Part shown: positions 6,046 through 50,021 of the stretch, piece after piece
Layout of the letters: each line of letters opens with the position of its first letter
Position numbering within the stretch: the first letter of the stretch is position 1
Source: an uncultured Bacteroidota bacterium
GTDB lineage: Bacteria > Bacteroidota > Bacteroidia > NS11-12g > UBA9320
Reading direction: 5' to 3'
DNA length: 64,000 nucleotides
Assembly: GCA_937124965.1 (NCBI GenBank)
Contig: CAKZLB010000046.1
Coordinates: 100,776 to 164,775 of the forward strand
The notes under the pieces: generated by a model
Databases searched by the model: none
What the model was told of the DNA's origin: nothing
What the model saw: the letters and a program-made list of their open reading frames with translations, nothing else
Translations under genes and position numbers: made by a program

Positions 6046-8451
6046 ATGAGAAAGACAATGTTGAGATGGATTTATTTTACAGTGTTGATAGTCTTTGGTA
6101 GCACCTTGTGCTTTGGTCAACAGGTTCGGATAACTGGGTCTGAAAATGAACCGATATCAGAAGTTGATGCGTTGATTTATTCAAAACGAAATCAAACCGC
6201 GTTATCGTCGGATGAAAACGGTATCATTCGATTAAATACCACCGTCTTTGATTCAATTGTTTTTTTTCACCCTTCTTATTTCAGGAAATCACTTAGCCCA
6301 GAAGCCCTGAAAGCGGCAAATAACAATGTTTCGTTAGATGTGAAGGTATATGTGGCACCGACGCTTTATTTCAGACATGATCCTGATTTTGAACGACAAA
6401 AAGATCAGCCAACAAAGCTGGTGACAATGAAGCCAAAGGACACGAAATTTTTCAATCCACAAACCACTGCAGATTTATTAGGGTTAAGCAATCAAGTATT
6501 TATTCAAAAATCTCAAATGGGTGGCGGAAGTCCAATGATACGTGGTTTTTCTGCCAACAATGTGCTTATTGTGGTTGATGGGGTAAGGATGAATAATGCT
6601 ATTTTTCGAGATGGAAATATTCAAAATATTATTACACTTGATGCTAATCTCATTGACCAAACCCAAATAGTTTTTGGCCCAGGGTCTGTCTTTTACGGTA
6701 GCGATGCAATGGGAGGTGTTATGGCGTTTGAAACTAAAACACCTTCAATAGATTCCGGAGCACATTATGATGGAAATGTAATGTTGCGAACTGCTACTGC
6801 CAATAGAGAAAATTCTTGGCATGTTGATTTAAGCTATGGCAAAGGAAAGTTTGCTGGTTTGAGTAGTATTTCTATCTCAAATTTTGGCGAATTGCGAATG
6901 GGTAATGATGGACCCCAAGAATACACCAGACCTTTTTTTAGCGAATACAATGGCTCCACTGATACAATTATCAGAAATGACGACCCTAATGTTCAATACT
7001 TTACAAGTTACAGTCAGGTAAATATCAACCAAAAGTTTCGATATAAACCAGATAGCTTGAATGACTTTGTTCTACATTTTGGATTAGCTACATCTTCCCC
7101 AATTCCACGCTATGACAGACTACTTCAAACCAGAAACGGTTTACCAAGATATGGCGACTGGTATTATGGTCCGCAGAAATGGACCCAGTTAAACGGTAGG
7201 TATTTAAGAATTTTCCCTAAAAAAGTAATCGCTGACAAACTGACTACAACCATTGCATACCAAAGATTTGAAGAAAGTCGCTTTGTACGGCCTTTTCGAA
7301 GTTTTGAGTTGGAAGAAAATAAGGAAAACGTTGATGTCTATTCGCTAAATATTGACTTAGACAAAAAGATAAATAAACTTGATGTTATGTATGGAGTTGA
7401 ACTGGTTTCAAACCTAGTTTCTTCTTCCGGTCAGGGAACAAAACTCGATTCAAACATAACCTTTGACATAGCGACTAGATATCCAGATCAGAGCACGATG
7501 AATACAGCAGCTGGGTATGTGAGTTTAAAAAGAGAGTTTGCAAAATCATGGCTCATTACTGGTGGTGCACGGCTGACTTACATTTCCCTTAATGCTCCAT
7601 TCAAGAATAGTTTTTACAATTTCCCATTCCAAGAAATTAACTTACAAAAATCTGCATTAAGCGGAAGCGTTGGTTTGCGCAAAATCATAAACAAACGATC
7701 ATTTATCTACGGAAGTGTTGCTTCTGGTTTCAGAGCGCCCAACATAGACGATATGGGTAAAATATTTGATAGTCAGCCGGATAGAGTAATCGTTCCAAAT
7801 GAGAATTTAAATCCTGAATATTCATATACCGGTGAAATTGGTTTTCAAGCCGATATCACCAAAAAGGTAAGCGTTCTCGTTAATTCATATTATTCGGTCA
7901 TTGACAACATAATTGTTCGAGAGGATTTTCAATTAAATGGAAGCGATAGTCTTTTTTATAATGGAGAGATGATGCGTATTCAATCTCTTGTTAATGCGAA
8001 CCAAGGTACAATTTCTGGATTAGAACTGCAGGTTAATATTGAGCTAACAAAAGAACTTGACGTTAAATCCTCGTATAACATTATTTCTGGAAGCACGAAA
8101 GACGGTTTACCAATTAGACATGTTACACCAAATTTCGGAAACACCACTATTTCTTGGAAACATAGCAAGTTTAATGTTATCGCTTATGCCAACTACAATG
8201 CTGAGTTGTCTAATGCCAGTTTATCACCATCAGAACAATCTAAAATCCATTTATATGCTAAGGACATCAATGGACTTCCCTACTCTCCCGCATGGTATAC
8301 AGTTAACTTAAAAACTGCCGTTACCTTTTCAAAATCTCTTAACCTAACATTAGGTTTGGAAAATATACTAAACAAACGCTATAGACCATACAGCTCAGGC
8401 ATTTCCGCTCCCGGACGCAATCTTATAATAGGATTGTATAGTAAGTTTTGA
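6046..8451 (+). CDS. TonB-dependent outer-membrane receptor with N-terminal carboxypeptidase-regulatory-like domain
   Basis: Signal peptide. Plug motifs GGGSPMIRGFSANNVLIVVDGVRMNNAIFRDGNIQ. Long beta-barrel with C-terminal ...LIIGLYSKF (terminal Phe). Confidence 0.85.
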   Translation: MRKTMLRWIYFTVLIVFGSTLCFGQQVRITGSENEPISEVDALIYSKRNQTALSSDENGIIRLNTTVFDSIVFFHPSYFRKSLSPEALKAANNNVSLDVKVYVAPTLYFRHDPDFERQKDQPTKLVTMKPKDTKFFNPQTTADLLGLSNQVFIQKSQMGGGSPMIRGFSANNVLIVVDGVRMNNAIFRDGNIQNIITLDANLIDQTQIVFGPGSVFYGSDAMGGVMAFETKTPSIDSGAHYDGNVMLRTATANRENSWHVDLSYGKGKFAGLSSISISNFGELRMGNDGPQEYTRPFFSEYNGSTDTIIRNDDPNVQYFTSYSQVNINQKFRYKPDSLNDFVLHFGLATSSPIPRYDRLLQTRNGLPRYGDWYYGPQKWTQLNGRYLRIFPKKVIADKLTTTIAYQRFEESRFVRPFRSFELEENKENVDVYSLNIDLDKKINKLDVMYGVELVSNLVSSSGQGTKLDSNITFDIATRYPDQSTMNTAAGYVSLKREFAKSWLITGGARLTYISLNAPFKNSFYNFPFQEINLQKSALSGSVGLRKIINKRSFIYGSVASGFRAPNIDDMGKIFDSQPDRVIVPNENLNPEYSYTGEIGFQADITKKVSVLVNSYYSVIDNIIVREDFQLNGSDSLFYNGEMMRIQSLVNANQGTISGLELQVNIELTKELDVKSSYNIISGSTKDGLPIRHVTPNFGNTTISWKHSKFNVIAYANYNAELSNASLSPSEQSKIHLYAKDINGLPYSPAWYTVNLKTAVTFSKSLNLTLGLENILNKRYRPYSSGISAPGRNLIIGLYSKF

Positions 8452-11380: not shown

Positions 11381-12979
11381 GTGAAAAAACTTCTACTAAA
11401 TCATAAAATCGAATTAACGGTTTTCATCACTGTAATCATTTCCTTTTTTTACAAACTAGGATACATGCCTCTTAGTGCTGATGAACCGATAAGGACTCTC
11501 ATTGCGATTGATATGATTTACGATGGAAATTATATTTCGCCTAAGCTTAATGGAGAGACTTATTTAAATAAACCGCCTCTTTACAATTGGATACTTGTCG
11601 GTTTTATTAAGATTTTTGGTTCGGTTGAGGAATGGGTAATTCGGCTTCCGAGTATATTATCCCTGCTATTGTTTGCTGGTGTTATTGGTTATATAACAAA
11701 CAAAGAGTTACCAAATAAAAAAGTCGGTTGGATTGTTGGTCTCAGTTTTTTAACCACCGGTAACATTATTATTTATTCTTCATATTTGGGACATATAGAT
11801 ATTACCTATTCCCTTGTAACGTTCCTTCAAATTTATCTCTTATATCACTTCTCCTCCAAAAACAAATGGTGGCAAGCTTTCACAGTGTCATATGGTTTAG
11901 CTTTTGTAGGATTTATGATGAAAGGACTGCCTAGTATTGTATTTCAAGGAATCAGCATCCTTGTTTTGCTGTACGTCTTTAAATCGATACGAAAGCTAAT
12001 TAGTAAAGAACATGTTGTATCAAGTTTGGTTTTCGTATTCCCTCTTCTGTTATACTTATACCTCTTTAGTCTAAATGACGATGTATCCTCTCTTCTAAAT
12101 AAGTTGGTGCTAGAAAGCGGTAGTAGAACTATTGCTGATAAGTCTTTTATGGAAAGCATTAGTCACATTTTCACCTTTCCTTTCACGTATTTTGTTGACA
12201 TTTTTCCTTGGGGGATCATGTCATTGATTTTGTTTTCGTCATCATCTAGAAAAATTATCAGAAGCAACCCTTTCTTAAAAATTTGCTTACTTCTTTTTTT
12301 AAGCAACATAATAGTGTACTGGTTATCTCCAGACTATCGTGCACGCTATGTGTTTATGTTAACTCCCTTTTTGCTAATTCCTTCTATTTATTGTTTTAGA
12401 ATCTTAGTTCCTTTAAAATGGACTAAAAGGATCACTGTAGGTGTTGGTGTAGCAGTACTATTAAGCATTGTCGGTATGTATGTTTATGCTAATTATTCAT
12501 CACAATCATACGTTTCACCATTTAACTTTTTTGTTCTAATTATTCTTGGTGGTTTTATGTTGTTTGGAATATTTCGCAACAAAAACAGAAAGTACTTTTA
12601 TTATTTTTTAGTCTTTTCATTGGCAATGGGTAGGATTGGCTACTCGTATTATATGGTTCCTTATCGTGTAATGAGTGGACCATACTTAACTGAAAAATTA
12701 GAGGGTGAAGAAATTGCAAAAATTACGCATGGAGAACCATTAGCGATGTACAACTGCAATGTGTCTAATACTATGAATTGGTACATTACTATTAATCGAC
12801 ACAAGTCATTGTGCACCGTTACCGAAGACTATTCCTTTGACTCATATTACTTAGTTCCTACTGAAGTGATTAAGGATACATCAAATATCACAACGTATTA
12901 TACCTTTGTTCGTAGATTTGAATCAAAACCATTTAGTTTGGTCAAGTTCAAATACCGATTTCCAGAGATGCCTAAATAA
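11381..12979 (+). CDS. ArnT/PMT-like membrane glycosyltransferase (GT39/GT83 family)
   Basis: GTG start. Multi-pass membrane protein with N-terminal loop motif GYMPLSADEPIRTLIAIDMIYDGNY...LNGETYLNKPPLYNW, characteristic of undecaprenyl/dolichyl-phosphate sugar-utilising C-type glycosyltransferases. Confidence 0.7.
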   Translation: MKKLLLNHKIELTVFITVIISFFYKLGYMPLSADEPIRTLIAIDMIYDGNYISPKLNGETYLNKPPLYNWILVGFIKIFGSVEEWVIRLPSILSLLLFAGVIGYITNKELPNKKVGWIVGLSFLTTGNIIIYSSYLGHIDITYSLVTFLQIYLLYHFSSKNKWWQAFTVSYGLAFVGFMMKGLPSIVFQGISILVLLYVFKSIRKLISKEHVVSSLVFVFPLLLYLYLFSLNDDVSSLLNKLVLESGSRTIADKSFMESISHIFTFPFTYFVDIFPWGIMSLILFSSSSRKIIRSNPFLKICLLLFLSNIIVYWLSPDYRARYVFMLTPFLLIPSIYCFRILVPLKWTKRITVGVGVAVLLSIVGMYVYANYSSQSYVSPFNFFVLIILGGFMLFGIFRNKNRKYFYYFLVFSLAMGRIGYSYYMVPYRVMSGPYLTEKLEGEEIAKITHGEPLAMYNCNVSNTMNWYITINRHKSLCTVTEDYSFDSYYLVPTEVIKDTSNITTYYTFVRRFESKPFSLVKFKYRFPEMPK

Positions 12980-22932: not shown

Positions 22933-25900
22933 CTATCGAATTAGTGTTACAGTTCCTGTGTATTTGAACTTTTCACCACTCCAGCTTACAATCTCAAGGT
23001 AATATCCGTAAACATCTTGTGTTACATCATCGCGTTGATCATGACCAGCAGTTTTTGGATCACCATCCCATTCTGCATTTCGGCCATACTTTCCATCCCA
23101 CTCAGCTAATCGATCTTTCGTTTCCCAAATCACTTCACCCCATCTATTGAATATCATTAAGTGATAATCTCTAGCAGCATCATTAACAACTGCTCTAAAG
23201 CCATCGTTTGCTTCTGGCCCTCCGCCATCTGGGGAGAACGCATTTGGAATAAATACTAATATGTCTGGTCCAATTAATACTGGGTAAGTAAACTCACTTT
23301 CACAGCCGTAGTTAGTTCTTACTCTCAATGTTACGTCAAAGGTTCCAGTATCAGATGGATAGAAAAATAGTGGACTTACTTCTGTTGAAGTATCATCAAC
23401 TTCAGACAAGATACCGAAATCCCATTCATTATCTACAATGGTACTTCCAAGAACACCGCTCGTTGTAGACTCATTATTAAATTGGAATCTTGGCAATGCA
23501 GCAGTTGTACTATTATTCGGGTTAGGAACAAAAAGAGCATTTGGTATAGGATAAACTTCAACGTCTTCTGTTATTGTCGTATCGCACCCAAAAGCTGAAG
23601 TAACCGTTAATGTTGCTGTATTCAAACCATCAACTGTGAATTGGTATCCTGGATTTTGTGCAACGTCAGAGCCTCCATCATCGTATGACCACTCATAGGT
23701 TGAAGTTGTTGGATCAACGTCGTTCAATATAGAAGTTGTAAATGCAACATCCACAGGGTTACATCCATTCAACGTATCAGCGGTAATTGCAGGTTTTGGG
23801 ACAGGATGAACGAATACTTGTGATGTAGTATCAACCGCAGGGCAAACGTTTCCTGCGTTTACAATTGTTGTTGCATAAAACAGTAGACGAGTCACAGAAT
23901 CGGCAGAAGATGTAAAATTAAACGTAGTTTTATCTGCACTTGGATTTGACATTGATCCACCTAAAAGTGCCAGCCATAACACCTCAGTTGCATTCGTATA
24001 AGTAGCTTCTAACTCGAGAGACATATTGTCATCATATCTACAAAATGAAGTATCCTTAGGAATTTCAATAGTGTGTTTTTGATGTATTACAACCTGAACT
24101 GAATCTCGTCCTTCACAACCATGTATATCGGTATAATCATATTTCATATAAAATGGCTGATTATAATTAGATGCACCTGCAGGGCTAAATGTTCCTGTAG
24201 AAGATAATGCTCCACTTTCAGTTGTTGACCAATCTCCTCCAGAATAGTTCACTTCTAAGTCCATGTCTGGATTTGTTTCACAGAAAGTATATGGAGAAAA
24301 CGAATTGTTTACTTCACCTAGAGGTACTTCGTTGATAATTGGTATAGGAAGACCTCGAATTGTTAAGGTTGTATCTCTAAACGTCGGACAACCTGAACGA
24401 TCGTGTGAAAAACGCATAATATATGTCAAGCTATTTCCTTCACCTGGGTTTGTTGTTCCAAGAGTATTTAATGTGTCACCATTCAAAGTGTCACCTTTCA
24501 AGGCAATATTCAAACCAGACGCTGGAGCAAAACCACTTGAGTCTACTGCTTTCCAAATACCATCGTAAGGAGTTACTTTGGTTAATGCTTTAAGATCAAC
24601 AATTCCCTCATCCCAACATAAATCTGGGAATGCATCGAAGTCAATCTTAGGCACTTTAGTTATTGCTATCTCACCTGTATCTCGGTTATAACAACCGAAC
24701 ACATTTCTAAATTCAAACTCTACAGAGATTGTATCTGATAACTTAGAACCAAGAGGAATTACATTTTCATCAATATGGAGTACATAATCCTGAGTTGCAC
24801 CTGGACCTCCACCATTTACGTCCTCTATAATTTCATTTTCTTTATATGTTCCGCAATCAACACATTTCCATGCTTGACGACCTAAGGCTAGTGTACCGCC
24901 ACCTGGTCTAACGATTATTTTATCATTTTTTACATTGACAATTTCCTTGTCCTGACAGAAGTAACCGTCTCTTAACTCTACAATTGGGAGTGGATTTACT
25001 TTAATCTTGAACGAATCCGTTTTCACACAACCTGTTGAAGGGTGCACATATTGATAACTAATATTCCAAGTCCTTGATTTAGTTGCATGTCCCGCTTTGT
25101 CTGTAATAAACTCAGATTGCTTTTCAACTAGCTCAGCAGAGTCAGAACAAAACCAAATACCACCTGACGCATTCGCATCTTCTAGAATTCTTAGGTTAAT
25201 CTTACCTGCGTCATGACAAACATCCATATCTCCAGGCATTTTAACGGTAGGCAACGGGTTAACCGTTATTATCACTGTATCGGCGTCGTAACATGTTGTC
25301 GTGTCTTCAGTCACAAAAAGTTCTAACTGAAAATCGGTACTATTTTGAATATTATACGCTAGGGTATCTTTAGTTCCCATGTCTGTCCGTGCTGGCGGAT
25401 TTGTTATATCCCACCACCTAAACGTTCCAGATTTGGACGTCCCGGCAGTATCCAACTCAGTTCCTATAAGCTCCATAAAATCATTCCAACAGTATGTTTT
25501 ATCTAAACCAGCATTTGCAACAACGGTATCGTTGACAGCCAACACCATGGTATCCGAGGCATAACAACCTAAACTGTCAATTACTTTGATAACATATTCA
25601 CCTTGGTCATGCAAACCTTCCATGGTCGTATCTTCACTCACCAGAACCCCGTCCAAATACCACTCTTTCAAAAGAGTGTCTCCTTGTCTCACTCTAATTT
25701 CAGAAGTGTCTCTTGGATCATCCCAATACGCTAAACTATCGTTTGGTATCAAATTAATGGTATCATACGTACAAATTCTGCGATCTGGACCAATAAATAC
25801 CAATGGATTCTCTTTCAAGAAAATAACAGTGCTATCCCAAGCAATACAATTATTCTGATCTTTAATTTCTACGTAGAAAGTTGAATCCTCGGTTCTATTT

Positions 25901-27696
25901 GGGATTTGTACATCGACAAACGAAGTGGTATCACCTGTTCCCCATTTGAAGCTTACTGGCATGCTGCCATTCGCAACCTGTGGCTCTAAACGCAACGTTG
26001 TTCCTGCACAAACAAATGTATCTGGACCAAATGCTAAATCAACTTCCAACAATGGTGGAACCACCAATGTGTCATAGTAGTCATTTGGACACTTAGGACT
26101 ATTATTAATAGTATGTTGAATTATATATGTTCCTCCCTTTCTAAACTTTAGGGTATCATATTGTTTAGAACTTATAAAAGAGGTTGTACTTTCAAAATAT
26201 CCAATTCCTTTATCGAAAATAACAACACCGCTAGTATCCTTTAATTGCCAAGAATATTTAGCAGGGTTTTTAAAGTTTGGAAATGGCTTACTTTCAATGG
26301 CATATCGTCCACAATCCAATTTCGTGATTTTTCTATCTGCTTCAGCAATTGGATTTACCTTTACCAAGAATGCTCGAACAGTTACAGCATTCAAAGGACA
26401 AGCATCATCACGTGCAGTTACTGTATATGAATATGGTAGATCACTGGCAGCACCAATTGGAGGTGTCCAACAGAATCGCGCTGATTGATTGATTGCTTTT
26501 GCATTAGTAACCGTAAATGATGCTCCTGGAATACCACGATTCCATTTCACTGTCACCGTATCCGGATCGGGTGTGGGCAACGGTGGTGGCGGAACCTTGA
26601 CCTTGTCCTCCGTGGTTATTGTATAACAGAGCTGGGAGCCCTCACAAACCGTCGAAGTAAACTGCCCTTTTATAATGGGCGGATTATTCCCGGGACATTG
26701 CTTGGTAATAAACTGCATATCCCGCCTTGTGACCCCAATTACTTCATATTTCCCTTTATCGTTCTTTCTCCATTCCTTTACTTCCAATACTGCAACAGTA
26801 ATCTCATCACACTTTACTGGTGTAAAAATTAAATCTCCAGTTTCTTCATCTAAATAGATTCCGATTGGTGGATTAGCATTTTGATTAACATATGGTGGCT
26901 TTAATGAACCTGGGTAGTAAGAATCAAATGGGTTCTTGTACGTATAGTTTCCACTGTAAGCGATTTTATTATTATACCCTCTTAATGGATCAGCAAATGA
27001 ATATGACAATGAATCAAAGTCTGATGTATCCGATGCACCATTATTATAGTAGAATGGTTGGTTACAACATAAGTATGCAATTGGCTCCGTTGTTAACGAA
27101 GGCGAAGAGTTACACGGTGCTTTACAAAGGTCAATAGTAGCATACGTATAAAAGTTCTGGTTTGCAGCTCCCGAAGTAATGTTCGAGTTTCTACAACACT
27201 GCCCTGTTTCTAATCGAATTTCACAACAGCCATTTTTAGTCAAATTACTATAAGGCGCCTTGTTAAAGTCAATAGTAACAGTATAATAATGCTCTTCAAT
27301 GCCGTCACCTGTTCGACTTGTATTAGAAGGATTACAAGGTTTGGTTGCAGTAGCACAAACCGGCGTTACATCTCGAATACTTTGACGTGTCAAAGAAACT
27401 CCTTGTGAAGCTCCAGTTTTTGTACAAATCAACTTCGTGATATTACTTGGGTTACCAAAAGGAACCCCACCACAATAACGATAATATTTTACCGTAAATT
27501 CAAATTTTAATGTGTCGAGACACTTGTACGTGATGTCCGCTCCCATTACGTGTGTTGCTTTTGCTTGTTGTACATTCGCAAACAACACGAATCCAAGTAA
27601 TGCTAGCGTGCTGACAATCAGACGCTTAAACCTCAGTGTATATTTTTGTAGACCTTTTTCCATAATAAACGTGCTAAAATAATCTTTTTTGTCCAA
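22933..27696 (-). CDS. Giant surface protein with T9SS type-B C-terminal domain (paralog of 18973..22848)
   Basis: Signal peptide. Mature N-terminus ATHVMGADITYKCL (same motif as its neighbour). C-terminus VFIPNAFSPDGGGPEANDGF...LMIFNRWGEVIWET...EWDGK. Confidence 0.75.
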   Translation of the reverse strand: MDKKDYFSTFIMEKGLQKYTLRFKRLIVSTLALLGFVLFANVQQAKATHVMGADITYKCLDTLKFEFTVKYYRYCGGVPFGNPSNITKLICTKTGASQGVSLTRQSIRDVTPVCATATKPCNPSNTSRTGDGIEEHYYTVTIDFNKAPYSNLTKNGCCEIRLETGQCCRNSNITSGAANQNFYTYATIDLCKAPCNSSPSLTTEPIAYLCCNQPFYYNNGASDTSDFDSLSYSFADPLRGYNNKIAYSGNYTYKNPFDSYYPGSLKPPYVNQNANPPIGIYLDEETGDLIFTPVKCDEITVAVLEVKEWRKNDKGKYEVIGVTRRDMQFITKQCPGNNPPIIKGQFTSTVCEGSQLCYTITTEDKVKVPPPPLPTPDPDTVTVKWNRGIPGASFTVTNAKAINQSARFCWTPPIGAASDLPYSYTVTARDDACPLNAVTVRAFLVKVNPIAEADRKITKLDCGRYAIESKPFPNFKNPAKYSWQLKDTSGVVIFDKGIGYFESTTSFISSKQYDTLKFRKGGTYIIQHTINNSPKCPNDYYDTLVVPPLLEVDLAFGPDTFVCAGTTLRLEPQVANGSMPVSFKWGTGDTTSFVDVQIPNRTEDSTFYVEIKDQNNCIAWDSTVIFLKENPLVFIGPDRRICTYDTINLIPNDSLAYWDDPRDTSEIRVRQGDTLLKEWYLDGVLVSEDTTMEGLHDQGEYVIKVIDSLGCYASDTMVLAVNDTVVANAGLDKTYCWNDFMELIGTELDTAGTSKSGTFRWWDITNPPARTDMGTKDTLAYNIQNSTDFQLELFVTEDTTTCYDADTVIITVNPLPTVKMPGDMDVCHDAGKINLRILEDANASGGIWFCSDSAELVEKQSEFITDKAGHATKSRTWNISYQYVHPSTGCVKTDSFKIKVNPLPIVELRDGYFCQDKEIVNVKNDKIIVRPGGGTLALGRQAWKCVDCGTYKENEIIEDVNGGGPGATQDYVLHIDENVIPLGSKLSDTISVEFEFRNVFGCYNRDTGEIAITKVPKIDFDAFPDLCWDEGIVDLKALTKVTPYDGIWKAVDSSGFAPASGLNIALKGDTLNGDTLNTLGTTNPGEGNSLTYIMRFSHDRSGCPTFRDTTLTIRGLPIPIINEVPLGEVNNSFSPYTFCETNPDMDLEVNYSGGDWSTTESGALSSTGTFSPAGASNYNQPFYMKYDYTDIHGCEGRDSVQVVIHQKHTIEIPKDTSFCRYDDNMSLELEATYTNATEVLWLALLGGSMSNPSADKTTFNFTSSADSVTRLLFYATTIVNAGNVCPAVDTTSQVFVHPVPKPAITADTLNGCNPVDVAFTTSILNDVDPTTSTYEWSYDDGGSDVAQNPGYQFTVDGLNTATLTVTSAFGCDTTITEDVEVYPIPNALFVPNPNNSTTAALPRFQFNNESTTSGVLGSTIVDNEWDFGILSEVDDTSTEVSPLFFYPSDTGTFDVTLRVRTNYGCESEFTYPVLIGPDILVFIPNAFSPDGGGPEANDGFRAVVNDAARDYHLMIFNRWGEVIWETKDRLAEWDGKYGRNAEWDGDPKTAGHDQRDDVTQDVYGYYLEIVSWSGEKFKYTGTVTLIR

Positions 27697-44264: not shown

Positions 44265-44915
44265 ATGACCGCCGAATATTTATTTGACGAATACGCCGAG
44301 ATTTACCAGAACAAATATTGGGATGTTTCTAAGTATTCTAAAAGCATTGACGCCCTTTGTTCTGAGATAAAAAAAGACTGTCCAACACTAATTGAACTCG
44401 GCTGTGGCCCGGGTAATTTAACCAATGCACTGTTAGCCCAACTGCCTACTTCAAATTATTTGGCAACGGATATTTCTTCAGAAATGGTGAAGCTTTCGGT
44501 TAAAAACAATCCAACAGCCGACCACGAAGTACTTGACATAAATAACCTAGCAACCCGCTCAAAAACCTACGATGGTATTGTAGCGGGATTTTGCATTCCT
44601 TACCTATCGCCCGAACAGGTTGTTGATTTTTTAGAAGCGGCGAAACGCATGTTAAATCATGGTGGTATGCTTTATTTAAGTGCAATAATCGCCACTCAAA
44701 ACAGCAAGGAACGCACTGTTTCCAGCGATGGCCAGCAACATCTTGACATGTATTATTATTCTAAGTCATGGTTAATTAACCAACTAAAAAACCATGGTTT
44801 TACGCTATTATTTGATGAAACCATTCACATAGATAACAATCCCAAAAATGAAAAAATGGATTGGACTGCAGTGATGCGGTTGGATTATAATAAAAAGTCA
44901 CCTTGCCCTAGTTAG
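44265..44915 (+). CDS. Class I SAM-dependent methyltransferase
   Basis: LIELGCGPGNLTNAL motif I. The last 7 codons and the stop lie inside direct-repeat copy 1. Confidence 0.7.
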   Translation: MTAEYLFDEYAEIYQNKYWDVSKYSKSIDALCSEIKKDCPTLIELGCGPGNLTNALLAQLPTSNYLATDISSEMVKLSVKNNPTADHEVLDINNLATRSKTYDGIVAGFCIPYLSPEQVVDFLEAAKRMLNHGGMLYLSAIIATQNSKERTVSSDGQQHLDMYYYSKSWLINQLKNHGFTLLFDETIHIDNNPKNEKMDWTAVMRLDYNKKSPCPS

Positions 44916-45052
44916 GTGACCTTATTTACAACACGAAATATTAATGAGGGTTGTTGGCCTTGGCCATGCGAAAAACCTCTTTTACCATTAAAGTCTAATA
45001 AATTTTCTGTTTTGATTACGGAGATGTCAGATTGGATTGCATAATACAACCT
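44892..45052. repeat. Direct-repeat copy 1: hairpin (AAGTCACCT..AGGTGACTT) plus degenerate copy of the icd 3' end
   Basis: About 85% identical over ~160 bp to 48008..48170. The minus-strand translation gives ...DISVIKTENLLDFNGKRGFSHGQGQQPSL, against the real icd C-terminus DIDVIKTENLYDFNGNRGYSLGQGQ*. Confidence 0.75.
44938..45030 (-). pseudogene. Displaced 3'-terminal fragment of icd (about 25 codons, no upstream gene body)
   Basis: See direct-repeat copy 1. Only the terminal codons are present, and its stop is shifted relative to the real icd. Confidence 0.6.
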
Positions 45053-45175: not shown

Positions 45176-47449
45176 TTAGTTTTTCACTGTTACAAACCAC
45201 ATGTCAACTTCCCCTTTGCCTTTTGCCTCAATCTTACCTCTGTGTTCAAAATCGAAGTGTGGTTCATCTTTGATGATTTCATAGGTGGTGTTGGAGATGT
45301 TGACCTTCCCCACTTCACCAGCACTTTCCATGCGGCTGGCGGTGTTTACCGTATCACCCCAAATATCGTATTGGAATTTGGTTGCACCAACAATACCAGC
45401 CACAACAGGACCGGTATGAATACCCGCTCTCATTTCAAAAGCAGGTTTGCCAGCCGCATCATTTTCTGCTTTGCGCGATGTTATAAACGCTTGCATTTCT
45501 AATGCAGCCAATACAGTATTCTTCGTTGATTCGGCTGTTGGTATAGGCAAACCTCCGGCCGCCATATAAGCATCTCCAATGGTTTTGATTTTCTCTACGT
45601 TGTACTTTTTACAAATGGAGTCAAAGGCTTCGAAGCAGATATTGATTTCTGCCACTAGCTCTTTGGCGCTGAGCTTTGCCGATGTCTGTGTAAATTCCTT
45701 GAAGTCGGTGAAGAGAATGGACACGTTTTCAAAATCACGGGCTTCGGCTTTGCCATTTTCTTTGAGCTCTGCAGCTATATCTGCAGGGAGAATGTTTAGC
45801 AATAGATTGTCGGAACGGTCTTTTTCTTTGGAGATGGTGTCTCTTGATTTTTTAATATAGCGGTTACGAGAATACAGTCCGCCTGCAATTAGTAGCAACA
45901 GCATTCCACCACCTGCCAACATATTTCTCGTTCTGTTCTTAATAGCAACTTCTTCTTGGTGGGCTTCTTGCACTAGACGGGCTTCTTCGGCTTTTGCAAT
46001 GCTGTCTTGCAATATGGTCTTGGCAAACTCCATTTGTTGGAGTTTTTGGGTAGTTTCTTGTGCATTTAAACTGTCATCAATGACTTTCATTTTTTCCATG
46101 TATATCAACGCCATATTGCCGTTACCGATGGCTTTGTAGGACTGGTAAATGCATTGACATGGACCGCTCTGATCTTTCAAAACATTTACTTCTTCAGCTA
46201 GTGCCAACCCTTGCATACAATATTTAAGTGCTTCGTCGTATTGTCTTTTTGAAAGGTAAATATCTCCAATATTCGTAAAAACACCTGATGTTCGCTTTTT
46301 AAGCCCAAATTGTTCATATTGTTTTAAGGAACGATGAAAATATGCTAGCGCGTTTGTGTAATCACCTTGCCTACTATAAACAAGACCAATATTGTTCAAA
46401 AGGTCTGCAATCAACTTTTCAAAAACAATCTCTTCTGCAATTTGTAAAGCTTGGTTGTAATAATCCAATGCCATAGTATAGTTACCCTGGTCAGAGTATA
46501 CATTTCCTATCAAATTTTGAGTTGCAGCGACGTCGTTTTTAAGTCCTAGGCTTGTTGATAAATTTAGGGAACGGTTGCAATACTTCAATGCTTCGGTGAA
46601 GTTTTCTTGATACAAGTAAATTATGCCAATATTAGACAAACAAAGTGAAACTCCTCGTTCGGACTTTGCCCCTTCAAACATTATTAATGAACGCTTAATA
46701 TATTCAAGAGCTTTGTCGTACATACCTTGTTCAACGTATATACTTCCGATGTTAAAAAAACTTCCTGCAGTATTTAAACTATCCTCAATTTCTATATTAT
46801 ATTTAAGTTCTCGATTGAAAACGTTTATGGCCATAGCGTATTTACCCTGCATCTTGAATAATTTACCAAGAGAATTTAAAGCAGTTCCAACTCCTGCTTT
46901 ATAGCCAACCTTTTCAGAAATAGTGATGGACTGATTTACATATTCAATTGCTTTGTCTAAATCGCCTTGTTGCTCATAAACGTTCGAAATTCTAGCCAAC
47001 AGCTTTGCAACCCTTCTATCTTCGCCTAATTCTTCATATATCTTTAGTGCATAATTGTAGTTCTCCAAGGTTTTGGTGAAGTCTTTTTTATTGAAATATG
47101 AAGCTGCTATATTATTGAATCCCTTTGCCTCACCCAATGGGTAATTATTTTTTTTACTGTAGGCAATTAACCTTTCTGAAAGAGCAATGGCTGTGTCTGG
47201 ATTGGATGTTACATATCCGGACCAAATGTAATGTTGGAAAGCCTTGGTCCGGCTTGAATCATGTTGTGTTTCATCTTGCCAAACGCCGTATAAGGAGTCT
47301 AGGTTTTGCCCATGCGCAGAATTAGTTCCAATAGCTACCGGGAGCGAAAAACTGATTAAAGTTAAAAGTGAATAGTTAAGGATTCTAGTTTTCATAATGA
47401 GTCGGGATTTCACTGCTTTTGATTTTGTTTTTATAAAGGTATCTCTCAT
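45176..47449 (-). CDS. TPR-repeat sensor adenylate/guanylate cyclase (class III cyclase homology domain)
   Basis: N-terminal signal/TM and about 10 TPR units (…YNQALQIAEE…). Also a TM helix, a coiled coil and a C-terminal cyclase domain (FTDFKEFT...GDAYMAAGGLP...RAGIHTGPVVAGIVG...WGDTVNTASRMES). Alternative start at 47395. Confidence 0.85.
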   Translation of the reverse strand: MRDTFIKTKSKAVKSRLIMKTRILNYSLLTLISFSLPVAIGTNSAHGQNLDSLYGVWQDETQHDSSRTKAFQHYIWSGYVTSNPDTAIALSERLIAYSKKNNYPLGEAKGFNNIAASYFNKKDFTKTLENYNYALKIYEELGEDRRVAKLLARISNVYEQQGDLDKAIEYVNQSITISEKVGYKAGVGTALNSLGKLFKMQGKYAMAINVFNRELKYNIEIEDSLNTAGSFFNIGSIYVEQGMYDKALEYIKRSLIMFEGAKSERGVSLCLSNIGIIYLYQENFTEALKYCNRSLNLSTSLGLKNDVAATQNLIGNVYSDQGNYTMALDYYNQALQIAEEIVFEKLIADLLNNIGLVYSRQGDYTNALAYFHRSLKQYEQFGLKKRTSGVFTNIGDIYLSKRQYDEALKYCMQGLALAEEVNVLKDQSGPCQCIYQSYKAIGNGNMALIYMEKMKVIDDSLNAQETTQKLQQMEFAKTILQDSIAKAEEARLVQEAHQEEVAIKNRTRNMLAGGGMLLLLIAGGLYSRNRYIKKSRDTISKEKDRSDNLLLNILPADIAAELKENGKAEARDFENVSILFTDFKEFTQTSAKLSAKELVAEINICFEAFDSICKKYNVEKIKTIGDAYMAAGGLPIPTAESTKNTVLAALEMQAFITSRKAENDAAGKPAFEMRAGIHTGPVVAGIVGATKFQYDIWGDTVNTASRMESAGEVGKVNISNTTYEIIKDEPHFDFEHRGKIEAKGKGEVDMWFVTVKN

Positions 47450-47639
47450 TGTTCGTTGTTCACTATAAACTTTTCACTGTTATACAATATCCGACGGGTT
47501 TATGCTGTTGTTGGGTTTTGAATGGTGGTTCATGCTGTTGTTGCAAATTAAGAAAAATATGGGTTTGGACAACCTCCAGAGTTCGTGAACGTTGCTCGTA
47601 TTGTTCGTTGATTTTTGTTGGTTTGGAATTACTAAAGAG

Positions 47640-47930
47640 TTGTTGGGGGTGGCACATAGTTGGTTTGCAAAAGACGGATGTTGCGCCCCGAGACTGGAGG
47701 CCTGAACGCAGTGAAGGGTGCGCAGCACGGAGCAACGCGAACCCGTAAGGCGAGGAAATGGCGCCAAAGAAAATGATATTCAACCAGTTGTTTGTGCGCT
47801 TCGTAGGAAGATAGCGGTGTTCTCACATCGTGTATGGCGCTCAATGCATGATGTAGGGTTTGTCGACTAACTGTTTACAAACCCACTCGACCTTCACACA
47901 ACCGCCATTAGTGGGTCAGAGCTGCCTCGT
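47640..47930. other. GC-rich, ORF-free element: candidate structured RNA or other non-coding element of unknown class
   Basis: Local GC is far above the flanks. Contains palindromes (GGCGCC) and complementary blocks GCGCCCCGAG.../...GGCGAGGAAATGGCGCC. Only short overlapping ORFs on both strands. Confidence 0.25.
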
Positions 47931-48007
47931 CGACTTCGTTTTATGATATTCTAAACCTATTACTTTGGTTTCTACGAAGTCCCAAAACATCTCTCGGGTA
48001 TAAAAGT

Positions 48008-48170
48008 AAAAAGTCACCTAACCGAAGCTAGGTGACCTTATTTACAACACGAAATATTAATGTGGGTTATTGGCCTTGGCCAAGCGAATAACCTCTGTTA
48101 CCATTAAAGTCATATAAATTCTCTGTTTTGATTACGTCGATGTCTGCAACAATTGCATGATTCAATAAGC
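48008..48170. repeat. Direct-repeat copy 2: terminator hairpin plus authentic icd 3' end
   Basis: AAAAAGTCACCT-aaccgaagct-AGGTGACTTATTT hairpin immediately 3' of the icd stop. Homologous to 44892..45052. Confidence 0.75.
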
Positions 48171-49500
48171 TTGTAATGAATAACTTACTAAATTTCCCAC
48201 CATTCTTCACTTCGAATCTACATCGCCAGTGATCCGTGCAAAAAGTTTCTTCAAATCCGTTCGGCCACACCTTCACGCCTCGATTGGTAATCATGGTGAG
48301 CGTTGTTTCGTCGTTTAACTTTTGAAGTTTTGCTGCTAATTGGTCAGGATTACTTCCTTTCCAATCGACAAACAAATCGACGCCTTTTAATTCCTTATTC
48401 TGCGGTGCTGGGCGCTTATACTCAGGAATTTTAATAGAAACCGTAGAATCATATTTAGCAGGTTTAAACATTTTTGGAATTGATCCTAAACGCTCAATGA
48501 CCGCCTCGCCAAATTCTTTCGTACCAACTTTCGATGAACTAACTCCATCTTTATAAATATCGACAGTATGAACGCCGTCTTCTAGTGTTTTTAACCATGC
48601 GTTCTCAATTTTTTCAGCAATGTCTTGTTGTCCAATTTGATTTAACATCAATACCGATGCGCGTAATAATCCTGATGGATTGGCAATATTTTTTCCTGCA
48701 ATATCGGGTGCCGAGCCATGAATAGCCTCAAACATAGAACAGGTTTGACCGATATTCGAAGTTCCTACAAGTCCAACCGAACCAGAAATCTGAGCAGTTA
48801 TGTCAGAGATAATATCACCATATAAATTTGGCATTACCACAACATCGAAAATCTCTGGCGTGTCTGCTATTCTTGCCGCTCCAATGTCAACAATCCAGTT
48901 ATCAGATTCTATCTCTGGGTATTCAGCTGCAATTTCTTTAAAGACTTTATGAAACAAACCATCGGTGTGTTTCATAATATTGTCTTTGGTAAAACAGGCT
49001 ACCTTTTTTCGACCATATAACCTGGCATACTCGAAGGCATAACGGATAATTTTTTCAGATCCGGGTCGAGTTATCAACTTAAGACATTGCACTACCTCGT
49101 CTGTTTGTTGATGCTCGATGCCGGCATAAAGGTCTTCTTCGTTTTCTCTAATAATTACAACGTCCATTTCTGGATGTTTTGTAGAAACAAAAGGGTGGAA
49201 ACTCTGGCATGGTCTGACATTACCAAAAAGCCCTAAAGACTTTCTCATGGTTACGTTCAGACTCTTATATCCTCCCCCTTGAGGTGTGGTGATTGGTGCT
49301 TTTAAAAACACTTTGTTTCTGCGGATACTTTCCCACGCCTCCTCTCCTATTCCACTTGAATTTCCCGCTAAATATACCTTTTCACCAACTTGAATTTCTT
49401 CAAAATCAATGCGCGCACCTGCGGCTTTTAAGACTGCCAACGTTGCGTCCATTATTTCTGGACCAATTCCATCTCCTTTTGCGTATGTAATCTTTTGCAT
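48067..49500 (-). CDS. icd: NADP-dependent isocitrate dehydrogenase
   Basis: AKGDGIGPEI, PITTPQGGGYKSLNVTMRKSLGLFGNVRP, VIIRENEEDLYAGIE and NLYGDIISD blocks align with E. coli Icd. 477 aa with a C-terminal extension. Confidence 0.8.
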   Translation of the reverse strand: MQKITYAKGDGIGPEIMDATLAVLKAAGARIDFEEIQVGEKVYLAGNSSGIGEEAWESIRRNKVFLKAPITTPQGGGYKSLNVTMRKSLGLFGNVRPCQSFHPFVSTKHPEMDVVIIRENEEDLYAGIEHQQTDEVVQCLKLITRPGSEKIIRYAFEYARLYGRKKVACFTKDNIMKHTDGLFHKVFKEIAAEYPEIESDNWIVDIGAARIADTPEIFDVVVMPNLYGDIISDITAQISGSVGLVGTSNIGQTCSMFEAIHGSAPDIAGKNIANPSGLLRASVLMLNQIGQQDIAEKIENAWLKTLEDGVHTVDIYKDGVSSSKVGTKEFGEAVIERLGSIPKMFKPAKYDSTVSIKIPEYKRPAPQNKELKGVDLFVDWKGSNPDQLAAKLQKLNDETTLTMITNRGVKVWPNGFEETFCTDHWRCRFEVKNGGKFSKLFITSLLNHAIVADIDVIKTENLYDFNGNRGYSLGQGQ

Positions 49501-49625
49501 TGATTAATTTTTCACAAAAAAAGAGACATTTATTCATAATTTTATATTTATTCTATTTCTGAATTACATAACTTTTATTTATGTTTTTCAAAACTTCAGG
49601 GCATCTAAAAAATCCGATTGTACAC

Positions 49626-49662
49626 AAAAAAGTCCTAACCGAATGAACAGTTAGGACTTTTC
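49626..49662. terminator. Bidirectional terminator-like hairpin in the lpdA-icd intergenic region
   Basis: AAAAA-AGTCCTAAC-(10 nt loop)-GTTAGGACT-TTTT. A-tract and T-tract on either side. Downstream of lpdA on the minus strand. Confidence 0.5.
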
Positions 49663-50021
49663 AATCCTGTCCTAAATATTTTTACATATAGTTCTACTTG
49701 GCTTATCAGCCAAACCGATTTTACTTTTTGGCTTGAACCAAAAAGTAAACAAAAAGTTCAAGGCTCCTTTGGCGTTGTTCGTTTCCGCTAGTTTTTCTTG
49801 GAATCCTGCGGGTGATTCTCGAACAAGTTCTCGACTTCCCTTGGATTTGACCAAAAAAACTTCTCGGACACTCCACCTCCAAAAATGCCATTACCTAAAC
49901 AATAAATTTAGATAGGTAGTAAACGCGAGATCATTCAAAGTACACCTTGCCTTTGTTCATTGGGATCCCAAGCATTACTAAAAGGACGTTATATAGGACT
50001 TTTGATAATTTTAAGTTGTCT

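Follow-up and report, generated by a model that had tools for sequence, protein, structure and literature searches.

The GC-rich, gene-free block that separates icd from a TPR-cyclase gene in a 64,000-nt stretch of DNA (hereafter, the window) is, to judge from sequence comparison, real and non-coding, but it is conserved elsewhere over only about 85 bases, in one metagenomic Bacteroidota-like contig, L083. This core looks like a small undescribed structured RNA; the resemblance is suggestive, and two examples are insufficient as proof. We tentatively propose, with a confidence a little short of an even chance, that the core may be a small structured regulatory RNA of about 85 nt, read from the + strand, which would act either in cis, like a riboswitch, or as a small RNA in its own right, divergent from a regulator gene, and which lies in unexplained GC-rich DNA of an old insertion at the icd 3' end. 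An earlier sequence-only reading had proposed a structured RNA over 290 bp. The core, with its pairing-preserving substitutions on the + strand, its indel and its GC spike, lends support to that proposal, and the rest of the 290 bp does not; beyond the core, about 200 bp of the block still have no explanation.

Composition of the block and searches for known matches

Over positions 47640-47930 the GC content amounted to 52.6%, as compared with a mean of 37.5% (sd 3.2) for all 290-nt windows of the 64 kb, and the richest of these windows (53.4%) started at 47645. The statement of the sequence-only reading that the GC content is far above that of the AT-rich surroundings was thus confirmed. High GC in AT-rich genomes is a classic signature for finding structured RNAs (PMC6429828). 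The gap between icd and the TPR/class III cyclase gene is gene-free and, with 617-670 bp, the largest such gap in the window; the position previously given for the block, between the icd terminator and the cyclase gene, proved correct (Table 1). The mention of "only short ORFs" was largely correct: the block is overlapped by two mechanical ORFs, of 99 and 106 aa, neither of which matches Pfam or anything else, and stop-free frames of 99-118 codons are present on both of its strands.

The "dense self-complementarity" that had been noted was not borne out, as folding of the block did not exceed that of shuffled controls. The + strand of 47620-47950 had an MFE of -108.9 kcal/mol (z = -1.5), and 5 of 100 dinucleotide shuffles were equally stable; the - strand gave z = +0.75 against shuffles of the same kind. 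With 120-nt windows, the lowest z value on the + strand (about -2.5) was found at 47790-47940, and the strong signal on the - strand came from the icd terminator.

Two other regions of the window are unusual in composition. The second-highest GC peak (26356-26812, 49.7%) is coding and lies inside a 1587-aa ORF (22933-27696, - strand) whose product carries a PKD domain and a type IX secretion signal of the CHU_C type. The other, a very AT-rich gap of 520 bp (49501-50021, GC down to 24-30%), extends from a dihydrolipoyl-dehydrogenase-like gene to the icd start, and a 35-nt imperfect direct repeat is present at both of its ends (49533-67 and 50002-36).

Scanning the whole window with the Rfam 15 covariance models at gathering score gave no match, and scans at E<=10 of slices of 851 nt and 111 nt, as well as of the L083 copy, gave nothing inside the block or the core. 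The unmatched families include RNase P, tmRNA, SRP, 6S/Flavo-1/Bacteroidales-1, riboswitches, ribozymes and HEARO, and ARAGORN found no tRNA or tmRNA. The earlier judgement, made by eye, that the block is not RNase P RNA, tmRNA, SRP RNA or a common riboswitch therefore holds even at E<=10. A resemblance to RNase P was considered: an 18-mer from the GC peak, AACCCGTAAGGCGAGGAA, which served as the seed for the scan described below, also occurs in an archaeal RNase P RNA. We rejected this as chance, since the similarity stops at the word and the RNase P models gave no score on the block. The archaeal RNA (L082, 120-484, - strand; Rfam RF00373, 168.6 bits) comes from a brine metagenome.

The concatenated six-frame translation of 47450-48005 was searched against 5.8 billion protein clusters without a match at E<=10. 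This set does contain the cyclase and icd of this very genome, so the result argues that 47450-48005 holds no public gene call or recognisable pseudogene; it also lends no support to the fallback explanation of the sequence-only reading, a decayed integrase remnant. Furthermore, tblastn of the proteins encoded around the L083 core against the spacer was negative, blastn of 47450-48000 against phage and plasmid collections gave no match, and seven pattern scans of viral contigs returned chance matches only. A literature search for the invariant words of the core found no paper.

The conserved core and its candidate folds

An exact-word scan of 241 million metagenome records with the same 18-mer returned six loci. 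Five of these were chance matches, and the alignment extended only in L083, which makes the core a rare element in these records. The blastn alignment with L083 covers 93 nt at 80.6% identity, with an E-value of 3e-17 in the fetched set, which corresponds by rough scaling to about 1e-9 in a database of terabase order. L083 is a 485-kb, AT-rich metagenomic contig of Bacteroidota-like character, and the 9.4-kb locus that was fetched from it has 36% GC. The window and L083 are unalignable outside 47683-47764, and 47640-47682 and 47766-47930 had no detectable relative in any search run. The boundaries of conservation coincide with helix P1, described below. In both cases the core is GC-rich (62-67%) in a genome of 36-37% GC; in L083 it forms a GC spike, with 59-63% in 90-nt windows and 67% over the model match. 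The Rfam and conservation checks that had been suggested gave no Rfam 15 match and a core that is conserved at about 80% in L083, where the surroundings are unrelated.

A covariance model built from both copies scored 113.7 and 105.5 bits on them, and less than 13 bits everywhere else searched, that is, in the rest of the window (filters off), in about 1-1.2 Mb of Bacteroidota loci and in additional fetched loci. The core is therefore single-copy in the 64-kb window by this model with filters off. Two blocks of 16 and 22 nt are identical in the window and in L083 (Table 1), and a 1-nt indel between them rules out a shared reading frame.

In L083 another intergenic gap, 5 kb away from the core, carries an inverted, partial second copy of its 3' 32 nt (7843-7874, + strand; 26 of 32 positions identical), in which the 3' part of the second invariant block recurs. 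Beside this partial copy, at 7684-7724, a near-perfect hairpin of about 16 bp is followed by a T-run and is oriented against both flanking genes. The partial copy hints at repeated or mobile DNA, and a duplicated hairpin module would explain it equally well.

Table 1. Positions in the window of the GC-rich block, its core, the candidate helices and the neighbouring features
Feature	Position	Strand	Remarks
GC-rich block	47640..47930		52.6% GC, highest of the window
Conserved core	47683..47764	+	sole part with a homologue (L083 2848-2759, ~80% identity); covariance-model match spans 47677-47771
Invariant block 1	47687..47702	+	CCCGAGACTGGAGGCC, 16 nt, identical in window and L083
Invariant block 2	47737..47758	+	GCGAACCCGTAAGGCGAGGAAA, 22 nt, identical in window and L083
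Closing stem P1, 5' strand (candidate)	47683..47687	+	GCGCC; GCGGC in L083
Closing stem P1, 3' strand (candidate)	47760..47764	+	GGCGC; GCCGC in L083
Hairpin P2 (candidate)	47694..47725	+	47694-96/47723-25 and 47700-03/47716-19; three one-sided changes, all keeping G-U or G-C
Hairpin P3 (candidate)	47727..47746	+	ACGG/CCGU; A:U to G:U in L083
Alternative 5' hairpin (candidate)	47680..47726	+	47680-89 with 47716-26; in both MFE folds; excludes P1 and P2
Alternative 3' hairpin (candidate)	47749..47765	+	GGCG/CGCC, loop AGGAAAUGG; then A-rich tract and AUG at 47773
Non-conserved GC-rich remainder	47766..47930		local + strand hairpins 47826-47853 and 47856-47884; no relative found
TPR + class III adenylate/guanylate cyclase gene	45176..47449	-	757 aa as publicly called (P0001); Guanylate_cyc domain; divergent from core
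icd, NADP isocitrate dehydrogenase gene	48067..49500	-	Iso_dh + Isocitrate_DH_C_bact; convergent with core
icd intrinsic terminator hairpin	48010..48039	-	scores on + strand too (48013-48036); could end a rightward transcript from the core
Right repeat copy	48000..48165		functional 3' end of icd + terminator
Left repeat copy	44884..45049		degenerate pseudo-3' end of icd, without the stop codon; most differences non-synonymous

Candidate helices were derived from the closing stem given by RNAalifold, followed by a listing of every helix able to form in both sequences. On the + strand they compose a three-helix junction (P1, a two-part P2 and P3), in which 32 of 32 cells of the four candidate helices pair, with one double and four one-sided changes; on the - strand the same helices pair in 28 of 32 cells. 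The double change is compensatory and lies in P1, where C47686:G47761 becomes G:C in L083. The one-sided changes are all G-U-mediated (U:G to C:G, G:U to G:C, G:C to G:U and A:U to G:U). This junction model was picked with both sequences in hand and is hence biased. As an unbiased check, we used the MFE fold of the window sequence only, of which 18 of 20 core pairs were kept in L083, against 15.1 ± 1.6 expected from random placement of the 16 substitutions of L083 (P = 0.064, with two sequences). Five of these 16 substitutions fall in paired columns of this fold, which make up 40 of its 83 columns. The folding energy of the core was not exceptional when compared with shuffles (z = -1.1 and -0.3 for the two cores on the + strand, -0.9 and +1.2 on the - strand). 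For covariation, which the sequence-only reading had named as a check on its proposal, the single full homologue offers one compensatory change and four one-sided, pair-preserving ones, too few to establish it statistically.

The MFE architecture is common to both sequences, at about -31.5 kcal/mol, as compared with about -26.3 kcal/mol when P1 is enforced. It consists of the alternative 5' hairpin, P3 and the alternative 3' hairpin (47749-52 with 47762-65), and it reuses both strands of P1. In L083 the alternative 5' hairpin persists through coordinated changes at 47686, 47719 and 47720. The one variable P1 base, C47686 (G in L083), is matched at both of its alternative partners, G47761 being replaced by C, and U47719 and G47720 by C and A, which moves the bulge by one position. 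These predicted folds hint at a conserved conformational switch on the + strand and stop short of demonstrating one.

Gene context and the duplication of the icd 3' end

In L083 the core lies in a 293-bp divergent gap and points at an hppD-like gene encoding two Glyoxalase-superfamily domains, the AUG of which is about 130 nt downstream; behind it, in the opposite orientation, is the gene of a small membrane protein that carries a GerE/LuxR helix-turn-helix domain. The window copy has the cyclase gene behind it and the icd end ahead, with no + strand gene downstream. The reverse complement of the core is co-oriented with, and upstream of, a regulator gene in both loci, being 234-288 nt before the cyclase start in the window and about 80 nt before the LuxR-type start in L083. 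An alternative cyclase start, at 47395, would provide the protein with a signal-peptide-like N-terminus. A gene association of the kind seen with cis-regulators, 5' of the hppD-like gene, is found in L083 only, and the downstream genes on the - strand are unrelated between the two loci. The core is followed in both loci by an A-rich tract and an AUG, which open ORFs of 13 and 33 codons; the peptides look unrelated, and we gave them no weight.

No perfect match to the Bacteroidetes -7 box, TAnnTTTG, was present in 47396-48066; a version with one mismatch, TTGGTTTG, was seen by eye at 47660-67. No convincing promoter or terminator bracketing the core was found in its flanks on either strand, and the only terminator-like site downstream of it on the + strand is the two-way icd hairpin. 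Short T/G-rich direct repeats in the interval from the cyclase start to the core (47436-47670) may be regulator binding sites in a divergent promoter region. They comprise GGTTYATGCTGTTGTTG, present twice with a spacing of 30 nt (47497-47513 and 47527-47543), ATTGTTCGTTG (47448-58 and 47600-10) and GTTGGTTTGSAA (47617-28 and 47659-70), each present twice.

We considered the possibility that the core is linked to the cyclase family. This was rejected, since four cyclase homologues (in five loci, L115, L117, L118, L120 and L121), with upstream gaps of 16 to 755 nt, were devoid of the core and of a GC-rich leader. Relatives of the two flanking proteins are distant. The cyclase has none above 63% local identity, its top-scoring match being 53% identical over 91% of the length, and icd has none above 78% identity among about 15 billion proteins. 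Proteins identical to the two were found on no more than two public contigs. Neither the neighbours nor the block of the window recur at the 80 best icd loci of species representatives, which makes a synteny-based comparison impossible. As judged from these sequences, the source lineage is very poorly sampled. One of the icd relatives (L116, 77% identity, on a 3.05-Mb contig) is followed by a gene-free gap of about 755 nt (11435-12188) with several hairpin-like stretches, unrelated to the block.

The sequence-only reading had placed the block in a repeat-flanked segment, and the repeat was readily found, as two direct copies of 166 nt that are 84% identical (44884-45049 and 48000-48165). The duplicated stretch comprises the last ~33 codons of icd and its terminator, the copies being 3.1 kb apart. 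In the alignable part of the left copy, 9 of 11 codon differences are non-synonymous or at the stop codon. The 3.1-kb segment between the repeats contains only the TPR-cyclase gene, the GC content of which is ordinary, and the GC-rich spacer. No recombinase or integrase, or remnant of one, was detected within it by Pfam on the ORFs and by the six-frame search of the spacer. In E. coli, integration of e14 generates a 163-bp pseudo-icd' (PMC6379469). The best reading of the locus, by analogy, is that it represents an old, e14-like insertion at the icd 3' end.

Readings of the core and comparison with known systems

According to the reading that we favour, the core would be transcribed rightwards, divergently from the adjacent regulator gene (that of the TPR-cyclase in the window, that of the LuxR/GerE membrane protein in L083). 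The transcript could adopt two mutually exclusive folds, the three-helix junction closed by P1 and three hairpins in a row, with the P1 strands paired to other partners, and most of the invariant tracts CCCGAGACUGGAGGCC and GCGAACCCGUAAGGCGAGGAAA would fall in junctions and loops. Most likely, the core would be a conformation-switching regulatory RNA. It might act in cis as a sensor before a downstream gene, its location in L083 being about 130 nt 5' of the hppD-like gene, or as a stand-alone small RNA produced from a divergent promoter beside its regulator. In the window, the rightward transcript would cross the rest of the GC-rich block up to the two-way icd terminator, with a length of about 370 nt. 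That no + strand gene follows in the window is odd for a cis-regulator.

The same core might have no RNA function and be a relic of mobile or horizontally moved DNA, the 3.1-kb segment being a decayed integrative island, the GC-rich stretch its integration end, and the core a REP/MITE-like or recombination-site module that is also present in L083. The 166-nt icd 3' duplication, which brackets the cyclase gene and the block and has a decayed distal copy, would fit this view and mirrors the 163-bp pseudo-icd' of e14 in E. coli (PMC6379469). So would the conservation of the core in differing neighbourhoods, the inverted partial copy of its 3' 32 nt (26/32 identical) 5 kb off in L083, and a higher GC content, which is compatible with a foreign origin. 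Yet no integrase, transposase or protein similarity was found in six frames and no match in the phage, plasmid or viral collections searched, and the GC content of the cyclase gene is ordinary. The core has neither a target duplication nor terminal inverted repeats beyond 5 bp, and no island features surround it in L083. As to repetitiveness, the 9.4 kb of L083 hold one full and one partial copy, the 64-kb window holds a single copy (filters off), and the core is absent from about 1.2 Mb of other Bacteroidota loci. On balance we regard a relic as unlikely, though it is the alternative to which we give the most weight.

The remaining possibilities appear less probable still. The core might act on the - strand, within a long 5' UTR of the adjacent signalling gene (TPR-cyclase, or LuxR/GerE in L083), as was implied when the sequence-only reading spoke of the "long leader of the cyclase gene". 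Its reverse complement is indeed upstream of and co-oriented with the regulator gene in both loci, and P1 and its compensatory change are strand-neutral, but on the - strand 4 of 32 pairs fail in the other helices, and folding there is no better than in shuffles (+0.75 for the block, -0.9 and +1.2 for the cores). Moreover, the four cyclase homologues have no core or GC-rich leader, and the two downstream genes encode unrelated proteins; we consider this reading improbable. About the same low probability seems appropriate for a decayed coding remnant, such as a lost integrase or a gene once controlled by the core, an explanation that would apply mainly to the non-conserved 47766-47930. The int gene of integrative elements is often found next to the attachment repeat, and the block indeed lies beside an att-like repeat, with an atypical GC content and stop-free frames of 99-118 codons on both strands. 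Long open frames are, however, expected in GC-rich DNA, the indel in the core excludes a shared frame, and no match was obtained in six frames at E<=10 (5.8 billion clusters), in Pfam or with the L083 neighbour proteins. Finally, the block might be devoid of any function and the L083 match fortuitous, in keeping with the weak thermodynamic signals and with the five of six 18-mer matches that arose by chance. This we judge highly improbable, as the L083 alignment reaches 93 nt (E=3e-17), includes a second exact 16-mer, and has conservation boundaries that coincide with a helix.

If the core is indeed a regulatory RNA, it would add a small structured RNA not described before from a Bacteroidota lineage of which hardly any relatives have been sequenced, and little is known of regulatory RNAs in such lineages; with its two conserved alternative folds, it would be a candidate sensor. 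The boldest form of this reading, to which we grant a slim chance, is that the core is the founding example of a new riboswitch-like class of switching RNAs in sparsely sampled Bacteroidota, that it senses a metabolite tied to the hppD-like gene of L083, and that the window copy was carried in on a decayed integrative island. Should that gene be a true hppD, the sensed metabolite would be linked to tyrosine/4-hydroxyphenylpyruvate catabolism. The icd context, for its part, would illustrate that insertion at the icd 3' end, as by e14, occurs outside enterobacteria as well. As it stands, the core is one more orphan RNA candidate with thin comparative support.

Orphan structured-RNA candidates have been found as GC-rich intergenic regions in AT-rich genomes (the GC-IGR approach; PMC6429828, PMC8632094). 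The core is like these candidates in its high GC content within a long gene-free gap of an AT-rich genome, in its short length with pair-preserving changes and in giving no coding signal. It is unlike them in that they have tens to thousands of representatives and significant covariation, whereas the core is known from two full copies and matches no Rfam 15 family. With riboswitch aptamers it shares a three-helix model closed by P1, invariant junction tracts and a competing fold that reuses both strands of P1; in L083 it is, in addition, 5' of and co-oriented with a metabolic (hppD-like) gene and is followed by an A-rich tract and an AUG. It departs from them in that the gene association exists in one case only, the window copy being without a downstream gene, and in showing neither a terminator nor a clear ribosome-binding switch nor a match to a known class.

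Several small RNAs are transcribed divergently from the gene of a regulator, as in the pairs OxyS/oxyR, GcvB/gcvA and SgrS/sgrR. The core is comparable to these in that both of its loci have it divergent from a neighbouring signalling or regulator gene, with one intergenic region common to the two; the regulators are, however, unrelated (a TPR-cyclase and a GerE-type HTH protein), and no promoter or terminator is defined. As for the icd locus, it differs from e14 in E. coli in that it spans 3.1 kb only, contains no integrase or phage genes, has a cyclase gene and a GC-rich spacer as cargo and belongs to a Bacteroidota-like host. It is like e14 in that the duplicated icd 3' end is of near-equal length (166 nt versus 163 bp), the gene-proximal copy keeping icd intact and the distal one being a pseudo-fragment (PMC6379469).
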